Below the pieces are notes generated by a model that worked only from the letters and a program-made list of their open reading frames with translations, searched no databases and had not been told where the DNA came from. From the NCBI RefSeq assembly GCF_051883275.1, contig NZ_JBJETK010000004.1, positions 13,270 to 77,269 of the forward strand: a stretch of DNA of 64,000 nt, written 5' to 3'. The stretch is from Treponema sp. GTDB taxonomy: Bacteria > Spirochaetota > Spirochaetia > Treponematales > Treponemataceae. This document shows positions 4,952-34,157 of this stretch, piece by piece; position 1 is the stretch's first letter; each line of letters starts with the position of its first letter. A program made the position numbers and the translations under genes.

Positions 4952-7900
4952 CTACCTCCCTTCCACGATTGCAATTTCTTCTGCGGTCAAATCGTAGAGT
5001 TTGTACACTAAGGCGTTTATTTCTTTGTCGGTGGCGGTGATTTGGGTTTGTAGTTCCTGGAGCTGGTTTTTTGTGTCTTCAAAAATTTCGAGCCATTCGA
5101 GTTTGGTTTTTGGGGTGACTTTCTGCTTGAGTTCTTTCATAAAACCGTCAAAGTCCAGGTCGTAGAAAGTTTCCAGTTTTGTACTGATTTTTTCCAGCGC
5201 AAATGTCTGTTTTACAACTTTTAGGAAGTTGCCGGATTTTTTCTGCAAGTTTTCGTTGAGTGCGAGCATTTTGTCTGTCAAATCATCTAATTCTTTATTG
5301 TTTTCAAAATCTGGTATCGGAATTTGTTCAAAGTATTGCGGTTTTACTTCGATGTAACCGCCGTTTCTAACTACACAAATAGACGTAAGGAACTTCCATA
5401 CTATTTTTGAATTTAGAATGCTGACTAAAGATTTGTTATCAGTTGGAAGCATACAGCAAGGGGCTGAAACAATAGTTTTTGTTTCATCGTAAGAGAATTT
5501 GTTACTGTTTTGCAGGTTTCCCCAAATTACTTTGTTTTTTTCAAATAATGATTGATAAGCACAATTCCTTAAATTATAAGGCGTTTTTCCCTTGTCATAT
5601 CTTTTTTCAAGTTTGTCATAAAATCCATTCAGATAGTTTTTAACTGCCTTATAATCATCTATGTTTATCACGTCAATATCATCATAACCGTTATGAACTG
5701 ATAAAATATATTTTTCGATTGGACGATTAATCCATTTGTTCAAATCTTTGCCCTCAAAAACTTTTTTTATCAATTCGGCAGATTTCGGATCTTCTTCTAT
5801 AAGCCTGTTTTTTGTCGCTTCGTCAATAAAAAACGCTTCATTTAATCCCGTTAAAACACCTCTATAACATTTTCCGTATTTTTCAGAAACAGTAGGAAAA
5901 GAAGTTATCTTATTCAGAATAGATTTTAATTCGTTACTTTCAAAAGACCAGCTTTCACTATTTAAATTGGCTTGAGAAACATTCACATCATTACAGGCAT
6001 TTATAACGATATTTCCATTCATTGAATTAGGAATTTTTTTGTAAATGAAAATGTTGCCTTCTTCAAATTTCTTTTTCAAAATCAAAATAATCGGGTAAGT
6101 TGTTGCACCAGAGAATATTTGAACTTCTGTAAAATCAACATATTTTTCAATAGTTGTTTTTGTCGCTATAAAATCCCTTAATGTTTTTCCCGAAGTGGTT
6201 TTATCAAAAGTATTTGAAATAAATCCAAAAATGCCGTTTTCATTCAACAGGCTTAAGCCTTTTTCATAAAAATATGAGAACAAATCACCGTCTGGATTAA
6301 ATACATTGAAATTGTTTTTATAAAAAGTTATGTCTTTTGACAATAAAAGTTCAGCCCTGACATACGGCGGATTTCCAATTACTACATCAAAACCGCCTTT
6401 TTCGAACACTTCGGGGAATTCTTTTTCCCAGACGAAGGCTTTTTCGCCGGCTACGGCGGGGTCGTCGATGAGGGAGTTTCCGCATTTTATTTTGTTGTTC
6501 AGGGTGGTGAGTTTGCGGTCTTTTTGGGCAGTGTGCAGCCACAGGCTCAGTTTTGTAATTTCTACGCTTTCTTCGTTGATGTCTACGCCGTAAAGGTTGT
6601 TTTCCAGAATAGAGTTATCAGAATATTCGGCAAACGCCATTGTGTCATTGTTGATTGTGCGCAGAAAATCAAAAACGCGCCGGTGCTCTGTCTTGAGCTG
6701 AGTGAGGGCGGCAGTAAGGAATGCTCCGCTTCCGCAGGCAGGGTCTAGAATTTTCAACGTAAAAAGCCATTCCTGATATTCGTTGAGGGCTTTGTTCAGC
6801 CTGTCCTTTTCCTTTTTTGTCAGGGCTTTTGAAATGGCTTCGTCGTTTATGTTCAGTTCGGCACGCTTTTGTTCGCAGAGTTTTCCGATGGTGTTTTCTA
6901 CAATATATTTTGTGATGTATTCCGGCGTGTAGAAAACTCCGTCTTTTTTGCGCTTTCCCACATTATTGTTTTCAACTTTTTCGCCTGATTTTTCCGCTTC
7001 GATTTCTTTTTGAATTTCCTCGATTTCGGTGAGCGAGTTTTCAAAAATGCGTCCGAGAATGTCTACGGAAATCTGACTTTCAAAATCGTAATCTGCCAGC
7101 CGTTTTGTATGAATAAAAAGAACGTCGTCGCCGATTTTCAGACTGTCAAGAATTTCGTCCTGTTTGAAAAGTCCGCCGTTGTAGGCAAAAATGTTTTTAG
7201 TGCTGTCACTTTCGCTTTTGTAGCCTTTGTCTATTCTGTCAAAATAAGTTTTAAAAACACTGTACAGTGGCTGAGCGTAACCCATTTCCTTTAATTTCTG
7301 ATAGTCGCCGATAATGCCCATTACGCTGTTTGCCGGCAAAAGTCCGCGGTCTTCGCAAAAGAGGATAAACAAAATCCTGTCCAGAAGTTTCTGCGTTTTT
7401 TTGAACAGTACGAGTTTGTCTATTTCCGGGTTGTTTTCTATCATATCTTCAAACAGAAGGCGCTTGAACGTTGAATAGTCCGCATAAAAATTGTCGGTAA
7501 TCTGTTTTTCTTCGCTCAAAGTTTCGTGCTTGATTTTTAGCGGAACGTCGTTTTTGAGCTGGGTCAGTTCCATAAGAAGATACAGAATGCAGAAGTCCTC
7601 ATAGTTCAGCGTGAAAAGGTTGAATTCTATAAATTCGATTTGCGTTTCCACATAAACACGAAGACGCTCGAAGTTGCAGACTATTACGTAGTTGCAGTTT
7701 TCGTGGTGGGATTTGTAGTCGAATGCCTGACGGGCAACTGTGTCAAGGTCGGTGGTGTCTGTGCCTTTAAGTTCGATTACGGCACGCACGGAATTTTCGT
7801 TGTTTTCTTCGCAGATTGCGCCGTCTGACTTTCGGGCATTGTTCTTGTTTTTGGTTTCGTTTTTGAGTTCGGTAAGAATGTTGTAATCCGGCTCCGGCTT

Positions 7901-8240: not shown

Positions 8241-8389
8241 TTCATCAAGAACAAAATTTATTTTCATCTTGAGCAAAAATTATCTTTATCTTGAACAAAT
8301 ATTCAGAAAACAGGCTTTTTACGCCTTGCAAACAGTCTTTTTTCATGTTGTAAACAGTCTATTTACAGCCTGTAAACAGACTGTTTACA
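8241..8389. repeat. Array of seven near-palindromic sites at 22-bp spacing (three TTYATCWWGAnnAA, then four TGTAAACAG-N-CTGTTTACA-type)
   Basis: Site centres at about 8247.5, 8269.5, 8291.5, 8314, 8336, 8358 and 8380. The last site (8371-8389) is a perfect palindrome; the site at 8305-8323 is degenerate. Confidence 0.8.
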
Positions 8390-8567
8390 GATTTTTGCAA
8401 AAATACGAAGTCTAATTCTTTATTATATAATAACATAGAACGACATAAAAAACAATAAATTTTTATTTTTGCAAGGAATCTTTTTCATTTCCCTCTCTTC
8501 CCCTGCAATATTCAAACTCAACCGTATCTTGAAATCAAATGGAATTACATCTCTACCCAACTATAAT

Positions 8568-8594
8568 CGTCACCCCGAACTCGTTTCGGGGTCT
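8568..8594 (+). repeat. CGTC-tagged REP-like palindrome
   Basis: CGTC-ACCCCGAA-ctcgt-TTCGGGGT. A related half site (GTCATCCCGAACTTG, minus strand) lies at 8184-8198. Confidence 0.65.
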
Positions 8595-8793
8595 ATACGC
8601 TATATATAGTGCGGATTCTGAAACAAGATGTCATGATATAAATATCTGAAATGTGGTACTCTGATTCGACGGAATCAGAGAGTCGGCGGAAGGTTCTTCC
8701 GAACAGTGAAGAAGGCACCTAAAAAAAGTCTCTTACTTCGAAAACAAGATTGACCAAAAACGTTGTTAGTCGTTTTTATCCAATTCTATGAAA

Positions 8794-9273
8794 TTACCAT
8801 TGACTTTTATCTATCTGATATTTTTTAAAAATTCCTTTATTAGAATCCCATATAAGTGAAATTCCTTCCGTAACATTTTTTCCATTTTCACAGTAATAAA
8901 TTGTGTGAATATATCCTGTTTTTTCAGTTATATTAATTTTCCAACCATAAAACTGTTTTCCTTTTATATCTGATGAAAACAAAACAGTATTGTTTGTTTC
9001 AATTTTATTTTCAGAAAACTTTATGTAAGGATATACTTCATTTTTATTACTCGGTAATTCATAAATTATTGCTTTATCAAATATTTGTCTTTCAGAATCT
9101 TTATAATTAGCTGATAAATACATTTTTTTTCCACAAATACTAATTATTTCTGTTTTAAAATTATTATCTCCAAAATAGGACTCTAGATATGAAAGAGGTT
9201 CTTTTGAATGTATACGAAAGGCACAAAATACTAACAGAAAAATTGCTGTAAATGTCTTAAATCGCTTTTCCAT
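8794..9273 (-). CDS. Exported protein, putative immunity protein for the upstream NlpC/P60 domain
   Basis: 159 aa with a signal-peptide-like N-terminus (MEKRFKTFTAIFLLVFCAFRIHS). Starts 9 nt after the fusion gene stop. The function is inferred from position. Confidence 0.65.
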   Translation of the reverse strand: MEKRFKTFTAIFLLVFCAFRIHSKEPLSYLESYFGDNNFKTEIISICGKKMYLSANYKDSERQIFDKAIIYELPSNKNEVYPYIKFSENKIETNNTVLFSSDIKGKQFYGWKINITEKTGYIHTIYYCENGKNVTEGISLIWDSNKGIFKKYQIDKSQW

Positions 9274-9282
9274 AATTATCTC

Positions 9283-10197
9283 CTAAAATCGTAAGCTTCT
9301 GATTTCCCCAGTTTGAGGTAAAGGGGTTTCAATTAATTCTATAAGACCAGGATTGTCTAAGGTGTTTTCAGGTCCACCAGAGGCATTTACTCTGGCACCA
9401 TTTGAATTAACTATAGTTTGGACATGTACTATTCTGCCGTCTTCATCTCGCAAGAAACGTAAATCACCTCTTTGAAGAGGCCCATTAACAGGTTCTGTGT
9501 AATTAGCATAAATATCACTAGCTGTTTGATCCGGTATATTATTTCCCATTTGATTAAGACCGTATATTATTGAACCAGAACAATCCATTCCACCGTCTTC
9601 TGGTGAATTACCACCCCAAACATATGAACTTCCAACTAAGTTTTCCATAGTTTCTGCAAACTGCTCTGCAGATCCACTTAATTGTGAAGAATTATTATTA
9701 AAAGTATTATCTATAGAGTTTTCTGCTGCAATATTTTGGTTTGCAGGCAAAGTATATGCGGTAGTAGTATCATTGTCTGTTTCAATACCTTCATGTGCGA
9801 TTTCCATTCTTTCAAGTGCAAAGGTATTAGAACATGAACAATCAAGTTTTGGACCAATCCAGCGGCAAGGTATTGCCCGAAAGAAATTCCATCGTTTGAT
9901 TTCATTTCCTTCTGTATCTTTTAGGACAATCGAACCACTTTTACGTTCGACTTTTTCTGAAATTAAGAAATTCTTGAACCAGTTGAATAATTCATCGTTG
10001 TTGCTGATTCCCTTTTCTAGAACAAAATTTGGATAGCGAGTTCGCCCCTTAAAACGATGAACGCCGCCACCACCTTCTTCAATTTCAAATACTTCAGTTT
10101 CAGCTTCTAAGCCTTCACATTTTTGAAATCTTGCAGTTTCAATTCCGTCAAGTTCTATAAAAAATAAATATGATTTTAAATTAGAGTTATCTGCCAT
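9283..10197 (-). CDS. Fusion of a T4-gp19/Afp1-like contractile tail tube domain (aa ~1-140) and an NlpC/P60 peptidoglycan hydrolase domain (aa ~175-304)
   Basis: Tube motifs: FFIELDG..ARFQKCEGLEAETEVFEIEEGG...GRTRYPNFVLEKGI...LFNWF...RKSGSIVL.D..G.EI.RWNF.RA.PCRW.GP.L...ERMEIAHEG. NlpC/P60 motifs: LVGSSYVWGG...GMDCSG...GDL.F...IVHV...VNAS. Confidence 0.9.
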   Translation of the reverse strand: MADNSNLKSYLFFIELDGIETARFQKCEGLEAETEVFEIEEGGGGVHRFKGRTRYPNFVLEKGISNNDELFNWFKNFLISEKVERKSGSIVLKDTEGNEIKRWNFFRAIPCRWIGPKLDCSCSNTFALERMEIAHEGIETDNDTTTAYTLPANQNIAAENSIDNTFNNNSSQLSGSAEQFAETMENLVGSSYVWGGNSPEDGGMDCSGSIIYGLNQMGNNIPDQTASDIYANYTEPVNGPLQRGDLRFLRDEDGRIVHVQTIVNSNGARVNASGGPENTLDNPGLIELIETPLPQTGEIRSLRF

Positions 10198-10288
10198 AAT
10201 AATTCCATTCTATTATATTCCATATAAACAATGAAAATATATAAAAATAGTTACATTATTTGGAGAACTGCGCCCCAGTGCGGTCGTC

Positions 10289-10395
10289 CGACTAACTATG
10301 CAGCTAAACCGCAACGCAATTTACAGCCACACGAATCGCTCGCGTTTTTTCCTTAAGTTTAAATCCGTCAAAAACTGCTCCCGCATGAAGCGAAA
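10289..10395 (+). other. Possible truncated integron attC site
   Basis: Begins CGACTAAC, the exact complement of GTTAGTCG at 8765-8772. An internal hairpin is present, but the distal arm is missing and is replaced by an IS110 fragment. Confidence 0.45.
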
Positions 10396-10399
10396 AATG

Positions 10400-10550
10400 A
10401 AGGGCAATCAGAATGTAGTACCAGTGGCTTGCTGCAAGAAAATTGGCAGAGCTGATGTACACTCTGTTGAAAAATGGTATGTCATATGAAAAAAGAGCTT
10501 CCGTGTCAGCTAAACAGCTGGCAGCAGAAGTCCTTGCAATGGCCAGTTAA
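10400..10550 (+). pseudogene. IS110-family transposase C-terminal remnant
   Basis: Manual translation across a frameshift gives KGNQNVVPVA/ARKLAELMYTLLKNGMSYEKR...*, resembling the IS110 C-terminal A-V-A-R-K-L...L-K motif. Confidence 0.6.
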
Positions 10551-10697
10551 TTATTGGAATCAGGAGCTTCATGGTATTGACAAATATCATAGGAGTTCAG
10601 AATGACACCAGTTTTTAGATACTTTTTCCCATATTTTTCACTTGATTTTCACTGATTTTTCACATATATTAACTGTAAAAGCACTTTAAACAATGTT

Positions 10698-10976
10698 TTG
10701 GAGGACAATATGGCAAACATTACAATTACTTTGGACGATCAGGATAAAACTGCTATTTCTAATTTCTGCGAGCAGATTGGCATGACTGTTTCAGGGCTTT
10801 ACAATGTTTTTACAAAGCAGGTTATCCGCGAAGGACGCATTCCGTTTGAAATCAAAGTTGACCGCCCGAACCGCAAGACAATCAAAGCAATGCTCGAAGG
10901 CGACAAAATCGCAAACGACCCGAATGTCAAAGGATATACAAATGTTCACGAAATGATGGAGGCTTTGCTTAAATAA
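10698..10976 (+). CDS. dinJ: RelB/DinJ family antitoxin
   Basis: ITITLDDQDK...IGMTVSGLYNVFTKQVIREGRIPFEI...PNRKTIKAM.EG; overlaps the yafQ start. Confidence 0.9.
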   Translation: MEDNMANITITLDDQDKTAISNFCEQIGMTVSGLYNVFTKQVIREGRIPFEIKVDRPNRKTIKAMLEGDKIANDPNVKGYTNVHEMMEALLK

Positions 10977-11278
10977 TGGAATTTTCAAAGAAAAAAACAA
11001 AATATGAAATGCGTTTTACATCTGCAATGAAAAAAGACATGAAAAAAATTGTAAAACGCCATTATGATTTAAATCTTTTTGCAGAAACCGTTGAAAAACT
11101 CGCTAATGCCCAGCCTCTTGAAGAAAAATACTGCGACCATGCCCTTGAAGGAAACTGGAAAGGTCATCGTGAACTGCACATAAGACCTGACTGGCTGTTA
11201 ATTTATCAGATTAAAGACGATGTGCTTATCCTTGAACTTTCCAGAACCGGAACCCATTCAGATTTATTCGGAAAATAA
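10976..11278 (+). CDS. yafQ: YafQ family mRNA interferase toxin
   Basis: FTSAMKKDMK...PLEEKYCDHALEGNWKGHRELHIRPDWLLIY...L.L.RTGTHSDLF. Confidence 0.95.
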   Translation: MEFSKKKTKYEMRFTSAMKKDMKKIVKRHYDLNLFAETVEKLANAQPLEEKYCDHALEGNWKGHRELHIRPDWLLIYQIKDDVLILELSRTGTHSDLFGK

Positions 11279-33123: not shown

Positions 33124-34157
33124 AAAAAATAATGCTGCTTGCGCTTTTGCCGTTTATTTTATTTTCGGGGTGCAAAAAATCCGCCGGAAAAAAATCCGTG
33201 CAGCCCCAGAAAATTTCCGCATCTGAAAAAAAGCCCCTTGTCGGATTTTCGATAGACACGCTTGCGATTGAAAGGTGGCAGCGCGACATGGATATTTTTA
33301 TGGCGCGTGCAAGGGACTGCGGCGCGGATGTCATTGTTCAGAATGCCGGCAACAGTGTGGATGCCCAGAAAAAACAGCTCATGTATCTTCTGGACAAAAA
33401 TGTCGATGTGGTTGTGGTTCTTCCAAAAGTCGCAAATTCACTGGGCGAAGAAATTGAAAAAATCCGCGCAAAGAATATTCCCGTGATTGCCTACGACCGC
33501 CTTATTCTTGATACGGAAATAGATTTGTACATAACAGTTGACACGGAGCAGGTTGGGGTGATTATGGGAACCGAGCTTCAGAAAATTGCGCCGTGCAGAA
33601 ACTGGCTTTGTATTCTGGGGCCGCAGGAAGACAACAATATGTCGATGCTGCTGAAGGGGCTTGTGTCGACTATAAAAAATCCCATGTCTGTCATAACGGA
33701 AATTTTTTATACGCAGGGCTGGAATTACGATTTGTCGCGGCAGAAAATGCTCGATGTGATTACCAGCGGCGCAGTTCCCGATGCGGTTGTGTGCGGCAAT
33801 GATGCGGTGGCGGACAGCGTGATTACAGTTCTCCGCACATACTGCCCGAACCGGCATATTCCCATCTGCGGTCAGGATGCCGACATTGTGGCATGCCAGA
33901 ATATTGTGCGCAGGCTTCAGGATTTTACAGTTTACAAGCCGATTGTGGAGCTTGCAGAAACAGCCGCGGAAATTTCTGTAAAGGCCGCCCGAGGGGAAAA
34001 CTTGCAGCCGTTTCTCCGTGAGCTGAAGACAATCAATAACGGCACTGCGAAAATTCCTTCTGTTCTTCTTGCTCCGAGCCTGGTCAAAAAAGACAATATC
34101 GATGATGTCATTATCAGCTCAGGATTTCATACTTATGGTGAAGTTTACATGGAATAG
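33120..34157 (+). CDS. xylF: D-xylose ABC transporter substrate-binding lipoprotein-like
   Basis: Lipobox FSGC; GFSIDTL..ERWQRD, IPVIAYDRLI, DAVVCGND.VA, GQDAD..AC..I....QD.TVYKP. Confidence 0.8.
   Translation: MKKIMLLALLPFILFSGCKKSAGKKSVQPQKISASEKKPLVGFSIDTLAIERWQRDMDIFMARARDCGADVIVQNAGNSVDAQKKQLMYLLDKNVDVVVVLPKVANSLGEEIEKIRAKNIPVIAYDRLILDTEIDLYITVDTEQVGVIMGTELQKIAPCRNWLCILGPQEDNNMSMLLKGLVSTIKNPMSVITEIFYTQGWNYDLSRQKMLDVITSGAVPDAVVCGNDAVADSVITVLRTYCPNRHIPICGQDADIVACQNIVRRLQDFTVYKPIVELAETAAEISVKAARGENLQPFLRELKTINNGTAKIPSVLLAPSLVKKDNIDDVIISSGFHTYGEVYME

Follow-up and report, generated by a model that had tools for sequence, protein, structure and literature searches.

A probable integron-cassette remnant with a tube-toxin gene and an immunity candidate inside a decayed IS110-family element of Treponema

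In a 64,000-nt stretch of DNA from Treponema sp. (assembly GCF_051883275.1, contig NZ_JBJETK010000004.1, positions 13,270 to 77,269; hereafter the window), we examined two open reading frames (ORFs) on the minus strand, at 9283-10197 and 8794-9273. They are enclosed by GTTAGTCG at 8765-8772 and its exact reverse complement CGACTAAC at 10289-10296. A preliminary description of this DNA had drawn attention to this 8-bp inverted pair, and both its coordinates and its complementarity were confirmed. The first gene codes for a toxin on a contractile-tail tube domain and the second for a candidate immunity protein. On either side lie the two arms of an insertion sequence (IS) of the IS110 family, itself set into a repetitive extragenic palindromic (REP)-like repeat. 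We consider it very likely that the segment from 10296 down to 8763 on the minus strand is a crippled two-gene cassette of the Treponema integron type, lying inside a dead REP-targeting IS110 copy. The features of the locus are listed below; R'', L'', L' and R' are the paired segments of the recombination site attC, and G, C and L numbers are our handles for genomes, contigs and loci.

8568..8627, plus strand: REP-like palindromic repeat of about 59 bp, with further copies elsewhere in the own genome (C57, C51, C3, C23) and in relatives
8613-8627, plus strand: left half of the IS target, GGATTCTGAAACAAG, the last 15 nt of the REP
8628..8762, plus strand: left arm of the IS110-family element, IS positions 1-135, part of the 5' non-coding region with the putative bridge/seek RNA
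8763..8772, minus strand: putative remnant of the cassette's own attC, R'' core CGACTAAC (8772 to 8765) plus AA, followed by the IS arm
8794..9273, minus strand: immunity candidate, 159 aa, with a signal-peptide or lipoprotein-like N-terminus
9283..10197, minus strand: tube-toxin, 304 aa, PF06841 (Phage_T4_gp19 tube) plus PF00877 (NlpC/P60)
10198..10269, minus strand: AT-rich leader of 72 nt from the hairpin to the toxin start
10270..10289, minus strand: 20-nt hairpin GGACGACCGCACTGGGGCGC, with one mismatch to the genus consensus GGACGCCCGCACTGGGGCGC
10290..10317, minus strand: putative 3' half of the preceding attC, R' GTTAGTC (10296 to 10290) with L' and part of the central stem (10317 to 10297)
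10318..10433, plus strand: membrane-protein gene fragment (homology spans 10309-10439)
10434..10595, plus strand: right arm of the IS110-family element, IS positions ~1225-1386, with the last ~39-42 transposase codons, the stop at 10548-10550 and the end ..ATATCATAGGAG
10596..10606, plus strand: right half of the REP target, TTCAGAATGAC, which joins 8613-8627 into one perfect palindrome

The tube-toxin and its immunity candidate

The domains of the toxin were assigned by Pfam searches and were clear without structure prediction. Residues 9-139 form a contractile-tail tube domain (PF06841, E 2.8e-30) and residues 189-263 an NlpC/P60 peptidoglycan hydrolase domain (PF00877, E 3.4e-10), which keeps the DCSG Cys and a His motif. 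The 159-aa immunity candidate gave no match in a Pfam search, and a promoter scan upstream of the toxin gave nothing convincing. With a GC content of 24% in the immunity gene and 36% in the toxin, against 42.7% in the genome, the AT-rich pair is foreign in composition.

The tube domain (residues 1-145) is common to many proteins, at 60-83% identity, in which it carries differing C-terminal toxin domains; in relatives we found M23, GHH, GH-E, WHH, deaminase-like and DUF6883 domains on the same N-terminus. Homologues of the immunity candidate (27-65% identity) were found directly after NlpC/P60 domains in G256, G145, G071 and G089, independently of whether the N-terminus of the toxin was a tube or belonged to a much larger protein (open frame of ~2000 aa). 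In G111, a homologue of 65% identity lies ~0.7 kb downstream of a tube fusion. Since the immunity homologues track the NlpC/P60 domains, these data support the pairing of toxin and immunity gene, and a tube domain, a toxin domain and an adjacent immunity candidate all stand together at the locus.

Effector domains on the inner tube of contractile injection machines are familiar from the 'evolved' Hcp-toxin fusions of type VI secretion systems. Like such tube-fused effectors, the window protein has an N-terminal tube, a variable C-terminal toxin and an immunity gene directly downstream. Unlike the Hcp-toxin fusions, its tube is of the type of phage T4 gp19 and of the extracellular contractile injection systems (eCIS; PF06841), for which associated toxins have been described (PMC8213781). 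It also differs from tube-fused effectors with a machine in being an orphan. The tube-toxin is the single PF06841 gene of its genome, and PF04984, the only sheath family searched, had no match there. This genome is 99.7% complete, in 75 contigs. Clusters of sheath plus tube genes are present in G256, G111 and G169.

Treponema attC sites and the ends of the cassette

As a reference we used the chromosomal integrons of the genus, known from T. denticola and T. succinifaciens, with cassettes of up to three genes (PMC3607928). Their attCs are imperfect palindromes of ~65 bp, CACATAAC...GTTATGT, followed by a 20-nt GC hairpin, GGACGCCCGCACTGGGGCGC. In contig C2 of G002, an intI gene (TIGR02249, 407 bits against a cutoff of 265) is followed by attI and at least 6 such sites on the same strand. 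Twenty-six distinct sites fold as R''/L''-loop-L'/R'; 13 of the 25 base pairs show compensatory changes, and the R''-L'' arm has bulged bases. The 20-nt motif, at up to 2 mismatches, is present in 147 of 301 genus genomes, often in arrays of 10-20, and its reversed control matched once in total across all 301. These three lines, namely intI-linked arrays, the fold with its compensatory changes and the genus-wide motif arrays, identify the ~65-bp sites as attCs. We built a covariance model, R1, from the 26 sites; on calibration, true attCs scored 60-100 bits and degenerate attC or attI sites 26-40 bits, and its E-values are rough.

The same hairpin opens every cassette after R' GTTATGT (L076, that is G002:C2:944000-962000, L077, L078 and others) and follows attI too. 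Once a cassette is circular, the hairpin would come immediately 3' of attC, and it may be an accessory part of the recombination site; alternatively, it may be an RNA element at the start of each cassette transcript. A literature search found no paper with this 20-nt sequence. Some arrays also hold collapsed mini-attCs, CACATAAC-AAAG-GTTATGT plus hairpin (L076:4933-4971, L085:1140, and L077, which is G007:C4, minus strand, near 5872), in which R'' and R' are kept, the whole middle is deleted and the R1 score is 26-36 bits.

At the right end of the gene pair, window positions 10266-10317 are ~84% identical to attC sites in G021, G002, G013 and G007. On the plus strand, CGACTAAC covers here the R' core, GTTAGTC, and the G that opens the hairpin; on the minus strand, L' reads GCGTTGCGGTTTAGCTGCATA, directly before R' GTTAGTC. 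R1 matched 10270-10310 on the minus strand with 23.3 bits, the only match in the window with an E below 0.05. The next best scored 16.1 bits (E 0.054) at 33829-33894 and the remainder were near noise. Across the 2.54-Mb genome this was the sole reported match, and the genome's single copy of the 20-nt motif is the one at 10270-10289. Rfam searches had no match at the site, either at the gathering threshold or with E relaxed to 10. The preliminary description had proposed a cassette origin and an attC covariance search, and had held that 10289-10395 should resemble treponemal attC sites if this was right. The model match, alone in the genome, and the likeness of the sequence beside CGACTAAC to treponemal attCs bear out this part of the proposal.

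The orientation that it proposed was reversed. In Treponema integrons, intI, attI and then attC-GTTATGT-hairpin-ribosome-binding site-ORF lie in this order on one strand (PMC3607928), and at ~20 array sites we found a ribosome-binding site and start codon 10-20 nt after the hairpin, on the intI strand. From this array anatomy, the minus strand of the window corresponds to the top strand of the cassette. The genes had been described as running opposite to the usual cassette orientation; judged by comparison with the arrays, both the toxin and the immunity gene run in the normal direction. Likewise, 8765 had been taken as the cassette start and CGACTAAC at 10289 as the beginning of the cassette's own attC, but 10289-10317 belongs to the preceding attC and marks the 5' boundary. 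There the R' sequence GTTAGTC (10296 to 10290) contains the boundary G|TTRRRY, with L' before it and the 20-nt hairpin after it, and the toxin ATG follows 72 nt after the hairpin on the array-direction strand. The full minus-strand order is L' GCGTTGCGGTTTAGCTGCATA, R' GTTAGTC, GGACGACCGCACTGGGGCGC, 72 nt, the tube-toxin gene, the immunity gene with its TAA, 21 nt and CGACTAAC AA.

The last of these elements would be what is left of the cassette's own attC. On the minus strand it is an R''-type core, ..CTAACAA, which carries the invariant TAACA of the 26 genus attCs and begins 21 nt past the immunity stop, a spacing as in the arrays. The 5' TTRRRY of a cassette and its own R'' pair on circularisation, and the cores of a site in an array derive from different cassettes. 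The two cores of the 26 array attCs are typically complementary at 6 of 8 positions, and R'' (8765-8772) and R' (10289-10296) of the window at 8 of 8, with non-consensus letters on both sides, which supports the view that both ends belong to one cassette. R1 found no attC at the 3' end, where a complete site (R''-L''-loop-L'-R') would be expected. The locus is thus a cassette remnant and not a functional cassette.

The boundary with L'-R', the hairpin, the ORF direction, R'' after the last stop and the presence of two genes are all as in Treponema integron cassettes. The window cassette differs from these in lacking a complete attC, an intI and any other attC, and in lying inside an IS instead of in an array or at a GTT secondary site. 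No intI had been seen in the window, and this extends to the whole genome, where the best TIGR02249 match has 74.5 bits, with the cutoff at 265; nor did the genome hold attI or any attC beyond the partial one. Stranded attC sites are known from clusters lacking integron-integrases (IntegronFinder; PMC4889954). Such clusters are called CALIN, and single sites are termed SALIN.

The IS110-family shell, its REP target and the junctions

The left arm (8628-8762) is 81-86% identical to intact IS copies in relatives (L035, L036, L045, L041 and L047) and 96-98% identical to five contig ends of the own genome; the right arm (10434-10595) is 72-92% identical to IS copies in relatives, and its transposase frame ends at 10550. 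When 8400-10700 was searched by BLAST against the own genome, five contig ends matched 8613-8668 and five others matched around 10546-10616, with 92-97% identity over 10546-10607. Two sets of five contig ends are the signature of a collapsed multi-copy repeat whose two ends flank the gene pair, and from their sequence they indicate five further IS copies in the genome. The intact relatives are 1377-1409 bp long, with a ~255-nt 5' non-coding region, a left end ATG(C/T)CATGATAT.., a right end ..ATATCATAGGAG and a 361-aa transposase with DEDD_Tnp_IS110 (PF01548) and Transposase_20 (PF02371) domains, both found in L035. The window copy spans 8628-10595 (1968 bp) and keeps the first 135 bp and the last 162 bp. 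It lost about positions 136-1224, that is, the rest of the putative guide-RNA region including the donor-binding part, the transposase start and ~320 of the 361 codons, so that neither transposase domain is present. About 1085 bp of IS interior are replaced by 1671 bp of foreign DNA.

In the window, the IS starts with ATGTCATGATAT.. after ..GAAACAAG and ends with ..CATAGGAG before TTCAGAATGAC. These termini and flanks recur at the ten contig ends, in L035 and in L036, and every IS copy has a left flank that closes with ..GAAAC(A/G)AG. Such fixed-point insertion in a repeated target with shared termini is that of IS110. A single REP palindrome is split between the outer flanks, GGATTCTGAAACAAG and TTCAGAATGAC, which points to one IS copy, inserted once; in unbroken form, this palindrome is common in the own genome. 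The REP family (~59 bp, GTCATTCCGAACTYGTTTCGGAATC ... GATKCYGAAAC(A/G)AGTTCRGMATGAC) often occurs in tandem clusters, for example at C57:33337-39837 and C51:48126-48456 and in C3 and C23, and is shared with other genus genomes, G006 having at least 19 partial copies. A candidate 5' end of a group II intron at 8609 (GTGCG...) was rejected, as it had no Rfam support and the region consists of the REP and the left end of the IS.

IS110 elements guided by a bridge RNA or seekRNA are known from IS621 and ISEc21 (PMC11208160, PMC11187229). The intact Treponema relatives resemble these in having a ~255-nt non-coding region upstream of a transposase with DEDD and PF02371 domains, and in their fixed-point insertion in a REP-like palindrome with no target duplication. 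The left arm of the window copy holds two short guide-like segments, TCCGAAC at 8698-8704 and AAAACAAG at 8741-8748. In a comparison of six IS copies, such segments covary with the left and right target flanks, as would be expected of bridge or seek RNAs. For REP targets, in the window and in L035, the putative guides are AAAACAAG and (T/G)CCGAAC, and L036 has the guide AAAACGAG and the flank GAAACGAG. Unlike IS621 and ISEc21, the window copy lacks positions ~136-1224 and carries 1.67 kb of foreign DNA.

Sibling copies of IS110 type were also found in the central loops of attCs, ..GGTCAAG|CCCGC.. (L045:257-1665 in G075:C31, L047 in G163:C149 and L041 in G308:C108). In L045 and L047 the putative guides are AGGTCAAG or GGGTCAAG, plus TGCGGGC or CGCGGGC; the guide segments are changed to match the attC target, which would make these copies cases of natural retargeting from REP palindromes to attC. 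Only one flank of L045 and L047 is still attC, which suggests IS-linked rearrangements. Some IS110/IS1111 elements had been said at the outset to target attC; this is true for the siblings, while the window copy is REP-directed. An IS1111-attC group (ISPa21, ISPst6, ISKpn4; Tetu & Holmes 2008 and Post & Hall 2009, as cited in PMC11187229) offers a parallel, since the siblings L045 and L047 likewise sit in attCs and disrupt integron arrays. The Treponema elements differ in being of IS110 type, with the non-coding region upstream of the transposase gene, and in inserting in the central loop, where the IS1111-attC group targets one end of attC. Elements of IS1111 type have the non-coding region downstream and carry subterminal inverted repeats. 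The window copy further differs in lying in a REP and not in an attC. Another truncated tail of the same IS, with 92% identity to window 10424-10607, lies at L034:1270-1626 (G156:C21), where it forms an in-frame fusion with the beginning of a lipoprotein-like ORF; it represents a second, independent decay product.

Between the half attC and the IS tail lies a fragment of ~116-131 bp of a membrane-protein gene, 83-85% identical to an internal part of C52:3931-4593 (minus strand) and to its orthologues in G304 and G260. The possibility that C52:4119-4249 was a second IS copy was rejected, as it belongs to an intact membrane-protein gene; hence window 10309-10439 is a gene fragment. The foreign DNA is bounded and divided by three junctions. 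At J1 (8762/8763), which is sharp, IS position 135 is joined to the AA after R''. At J2 (~10317/10318), the attC half meets the gene fragment, with CA(A/G)CGC shared, and at J3 (~10424-10439) the fragment passes into the IS tail within a 10-15-nt near-identical stretch, with the overlap TGC.GCAAGA. With short homologies at J2 and J3, illegitimate recombination is the most likely origin of the mosaic, in preference to the action of IntI or of the recombinase of the IS. A partial hairpin had been described as running into an IS110-type tail; the tail is real, but the gene fragment stands between the two. It is this fragment, and not the IS110 remnant, that truncates the attC at 10289-10317, and the attC remnant that does abut IS sequence is R'' at 8772-8763, at position 135 of the left arm. 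We also rejected GTTAGTCG and CGACTAAC as the terminal inverted repeats of a separate transposon, as the foreign segment runs 137 nt past the right repeat.

Origin of the mosaic and its neighbourhood

The sequence of the locus suggests the following course. A copy of an RNA-guided IS110-family element would have been inserted into a REP-like palindrome. Its interior would have been replaced, through illegitimate recombination, by a cassette together with a ~120-bp scrap of a membrane-protein gene. The cassette would comprise the G|TTAGTC boundary, the hairpin, the tube-NlpC/P60 effector, the periplasmic immunity gene and the first 10 nt of its own attC, and upstream it would still have one half, L'-R', of an attC that stood before it in an array. 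The cassette origin has parallels in G169. There the tube-toxin genes of contigs C17, C26 and C35 come after, or lie between, attCs of 66-92 bits: those of C17 and C26 start 11-27 nt after attCs of 80-92 bits, one on C35 lies between two attCs, and one tube-toxin cassette also holds a DUF4926 immunity-like ORF after the toxin. The preliminary description had suggested looking for the same gene pair in intact arrays; homologous tube-toxin genes do occur in those of G169, but the identical pair was found in no array.

Several points weigh against this reading. Besides the exact cassette being found in no array, the nearest full-length toxin homologue is only 64-68% identical, and most toxin homologues (G256, G111, G305 and others) do not lie beside attCs. 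The surviving attC sequence amounts to half of one site and 10 nt of another, and the assignment of R'' at 8765-8772 is based on these 10 nt. The R1 score of 23.3 bits, with a rough genome-wide E of 0.04, would not convince by itself and needs the alignment and the exact 20-nt motif beside it. The evidence for the sibling IS copies consists of contig ends, and the interiors of these copies are absent from the assembly. The IS may have been in place before the cassette entered it, or the mosaic may have come in as a finished unit. As for the inverted pair itself, an exact 8-mer inverted match between the two intergenic stretches arose in 2116 of 20000 mononucleotide shuffles (10.6%), and in 48% when 200-bp flanks were used; as a bare statistic the pair is weak, and it is meaningful only through its context.

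This last number is the natural starting point for the view that the arrangement is a coincidence, an island gene pair near a stray repeat with a chance 8-bp match and no cassette history, and the many toxin homologues outside arrays would agree with it. We find it very unlikely, as the 20-nt motif is integron-specific in the genus and stands here in its canonical place and strand, the L' and R' found here can be aligned with attCs, the spacing from the stop to R'' is the canonical one, this R'' is complementary to an R' that departs from the consensus, and G169 holds tube-toxin cassettes. We attach scarcely any weight to the reading that the preliminary description had favoured, a cassette in inverted orientation that starts at GTTAGTCG 8765 and has its own attC from CGACTAAC 10289 cut directly by the IS110 element. 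The plus-strand order of GTT, ORFs and an AAC-initiated palindrome does resemble a cassette, and sibling IS copies do insert in attC loops; however, it would put the hairpin before R'' on the plus strand, which is never seen in genus arrays, the sequence past 10317 is a gene fragment and not IS, and the guides and flanks of the IS are of REP type and not of attC type.

It is also unlikely, though to a lesser degree, that the 1968-bp unit is a still-mobile, non-autonomous IS110 derivative, moved between REP sites by recombinase and guide RNA that siblings supply in trans. Both IS termini and the exact REP half-sites are intact, five inferred sibling copies have ends 92-98% identical, and a mini-IS with a cargo gene has been moved in trans by an IS110/IS1111 transposase and seekRNA (PMC11187229). 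Against this, there is no second copy of the unit in the genome, searches of 5.8 billion clusters and of 300 genus genomes gave no protein above 68% identity, and all other IS copies examined are 1377-1409 bp long and cargo-free. The internal junctions resemble random short-homology joins, and an ordinary insertion of the IS, with its interior later replaced in place, accounts for the REP flanks equally well. It would be of some consequence if siblings did move such shells in trans. IS110-type elements would then interact with integrons in two ways, by guides retargeted to attC loops and by a shell with cassette cargo, and cassettes could leave integrons and reach REP sites in integrase-free genomes, an integrase-independent route of cassette mobility; we regard this as improbable.

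Under the preferred reading of a cassette remnant in an IS shell, the locus is decayed mobile DNA and not a new kind of system. With no intI in the genome and no complete attC on either side, the cassette is dead for the integron machinery, and the IS shell is non-autonomous. In a genome that lacks both a contractile sheath and a second tube gene, the effector is without a launcher and is probably not deployed. Any selection here would most likely act on the immunity gene, which may protect against relatives armed with tube-NlpC/P60 effectors; the locus is probably inert apart from this possible orphan immunity. It would show how cassettes can end up outside integrons, by illegitimate recombination into an IS, in a genome that lost or never had the integrase. 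In gut Treponema, as the arrays of G169 show, integron cassettes are a form in which polymorphic tube-fused effectors of contractile injection systems circulate, and the attC-inserted siblings appear to be natural examples of IS110 guides retargeted between REP palindromes and attC loops. In the library of papers searched by full text, none joined integron and attC with contractile injection, which is weak evidence of novelty.

Tube-toxin fusions also occur in tandem. In G256 (T. succinifaciens), L068 (C1:268632-277594) holds four with differing C-termini, outside attC arrays; neither the attC motif nor an R1 match was found among them. Sheath and plain tube genes of this genome are on a second contig, at C2:5212-6462 and C2:28321-29604.

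In the neighbourhood of the mosaic, a RelB/YafQ toxin-antitoxin pair at 10698-11278 comes right after the IS. Homologues (68-83% identity) were present in 36 of 201 genus genomes, always in other neighbourhoods, which makes the pair a wandering module. A syntenic or empty site without the insertion was not found when these 201 genomes were searched with the relB-yafQ flank, and a flank apparently shared with G068 was dismissed, consisting only of the IS end and low-complexity sequence. On the other side, upstream of a Type IIG restriction-modification gene, 8349-8389 forms a near-perfect 41-bp palindrome (TGTAAACAGTCTGTTTACAG C CTGTAAATAGACTGTTTACA), which gives spurious microRNA matches in Rfam. 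A 286-aa ORF at 11395-12255 matches aminoglycoside 3-N-acetyltransferases (PF02522, 1.8e-26) and, at 50% GC, is richer than its surroundings.

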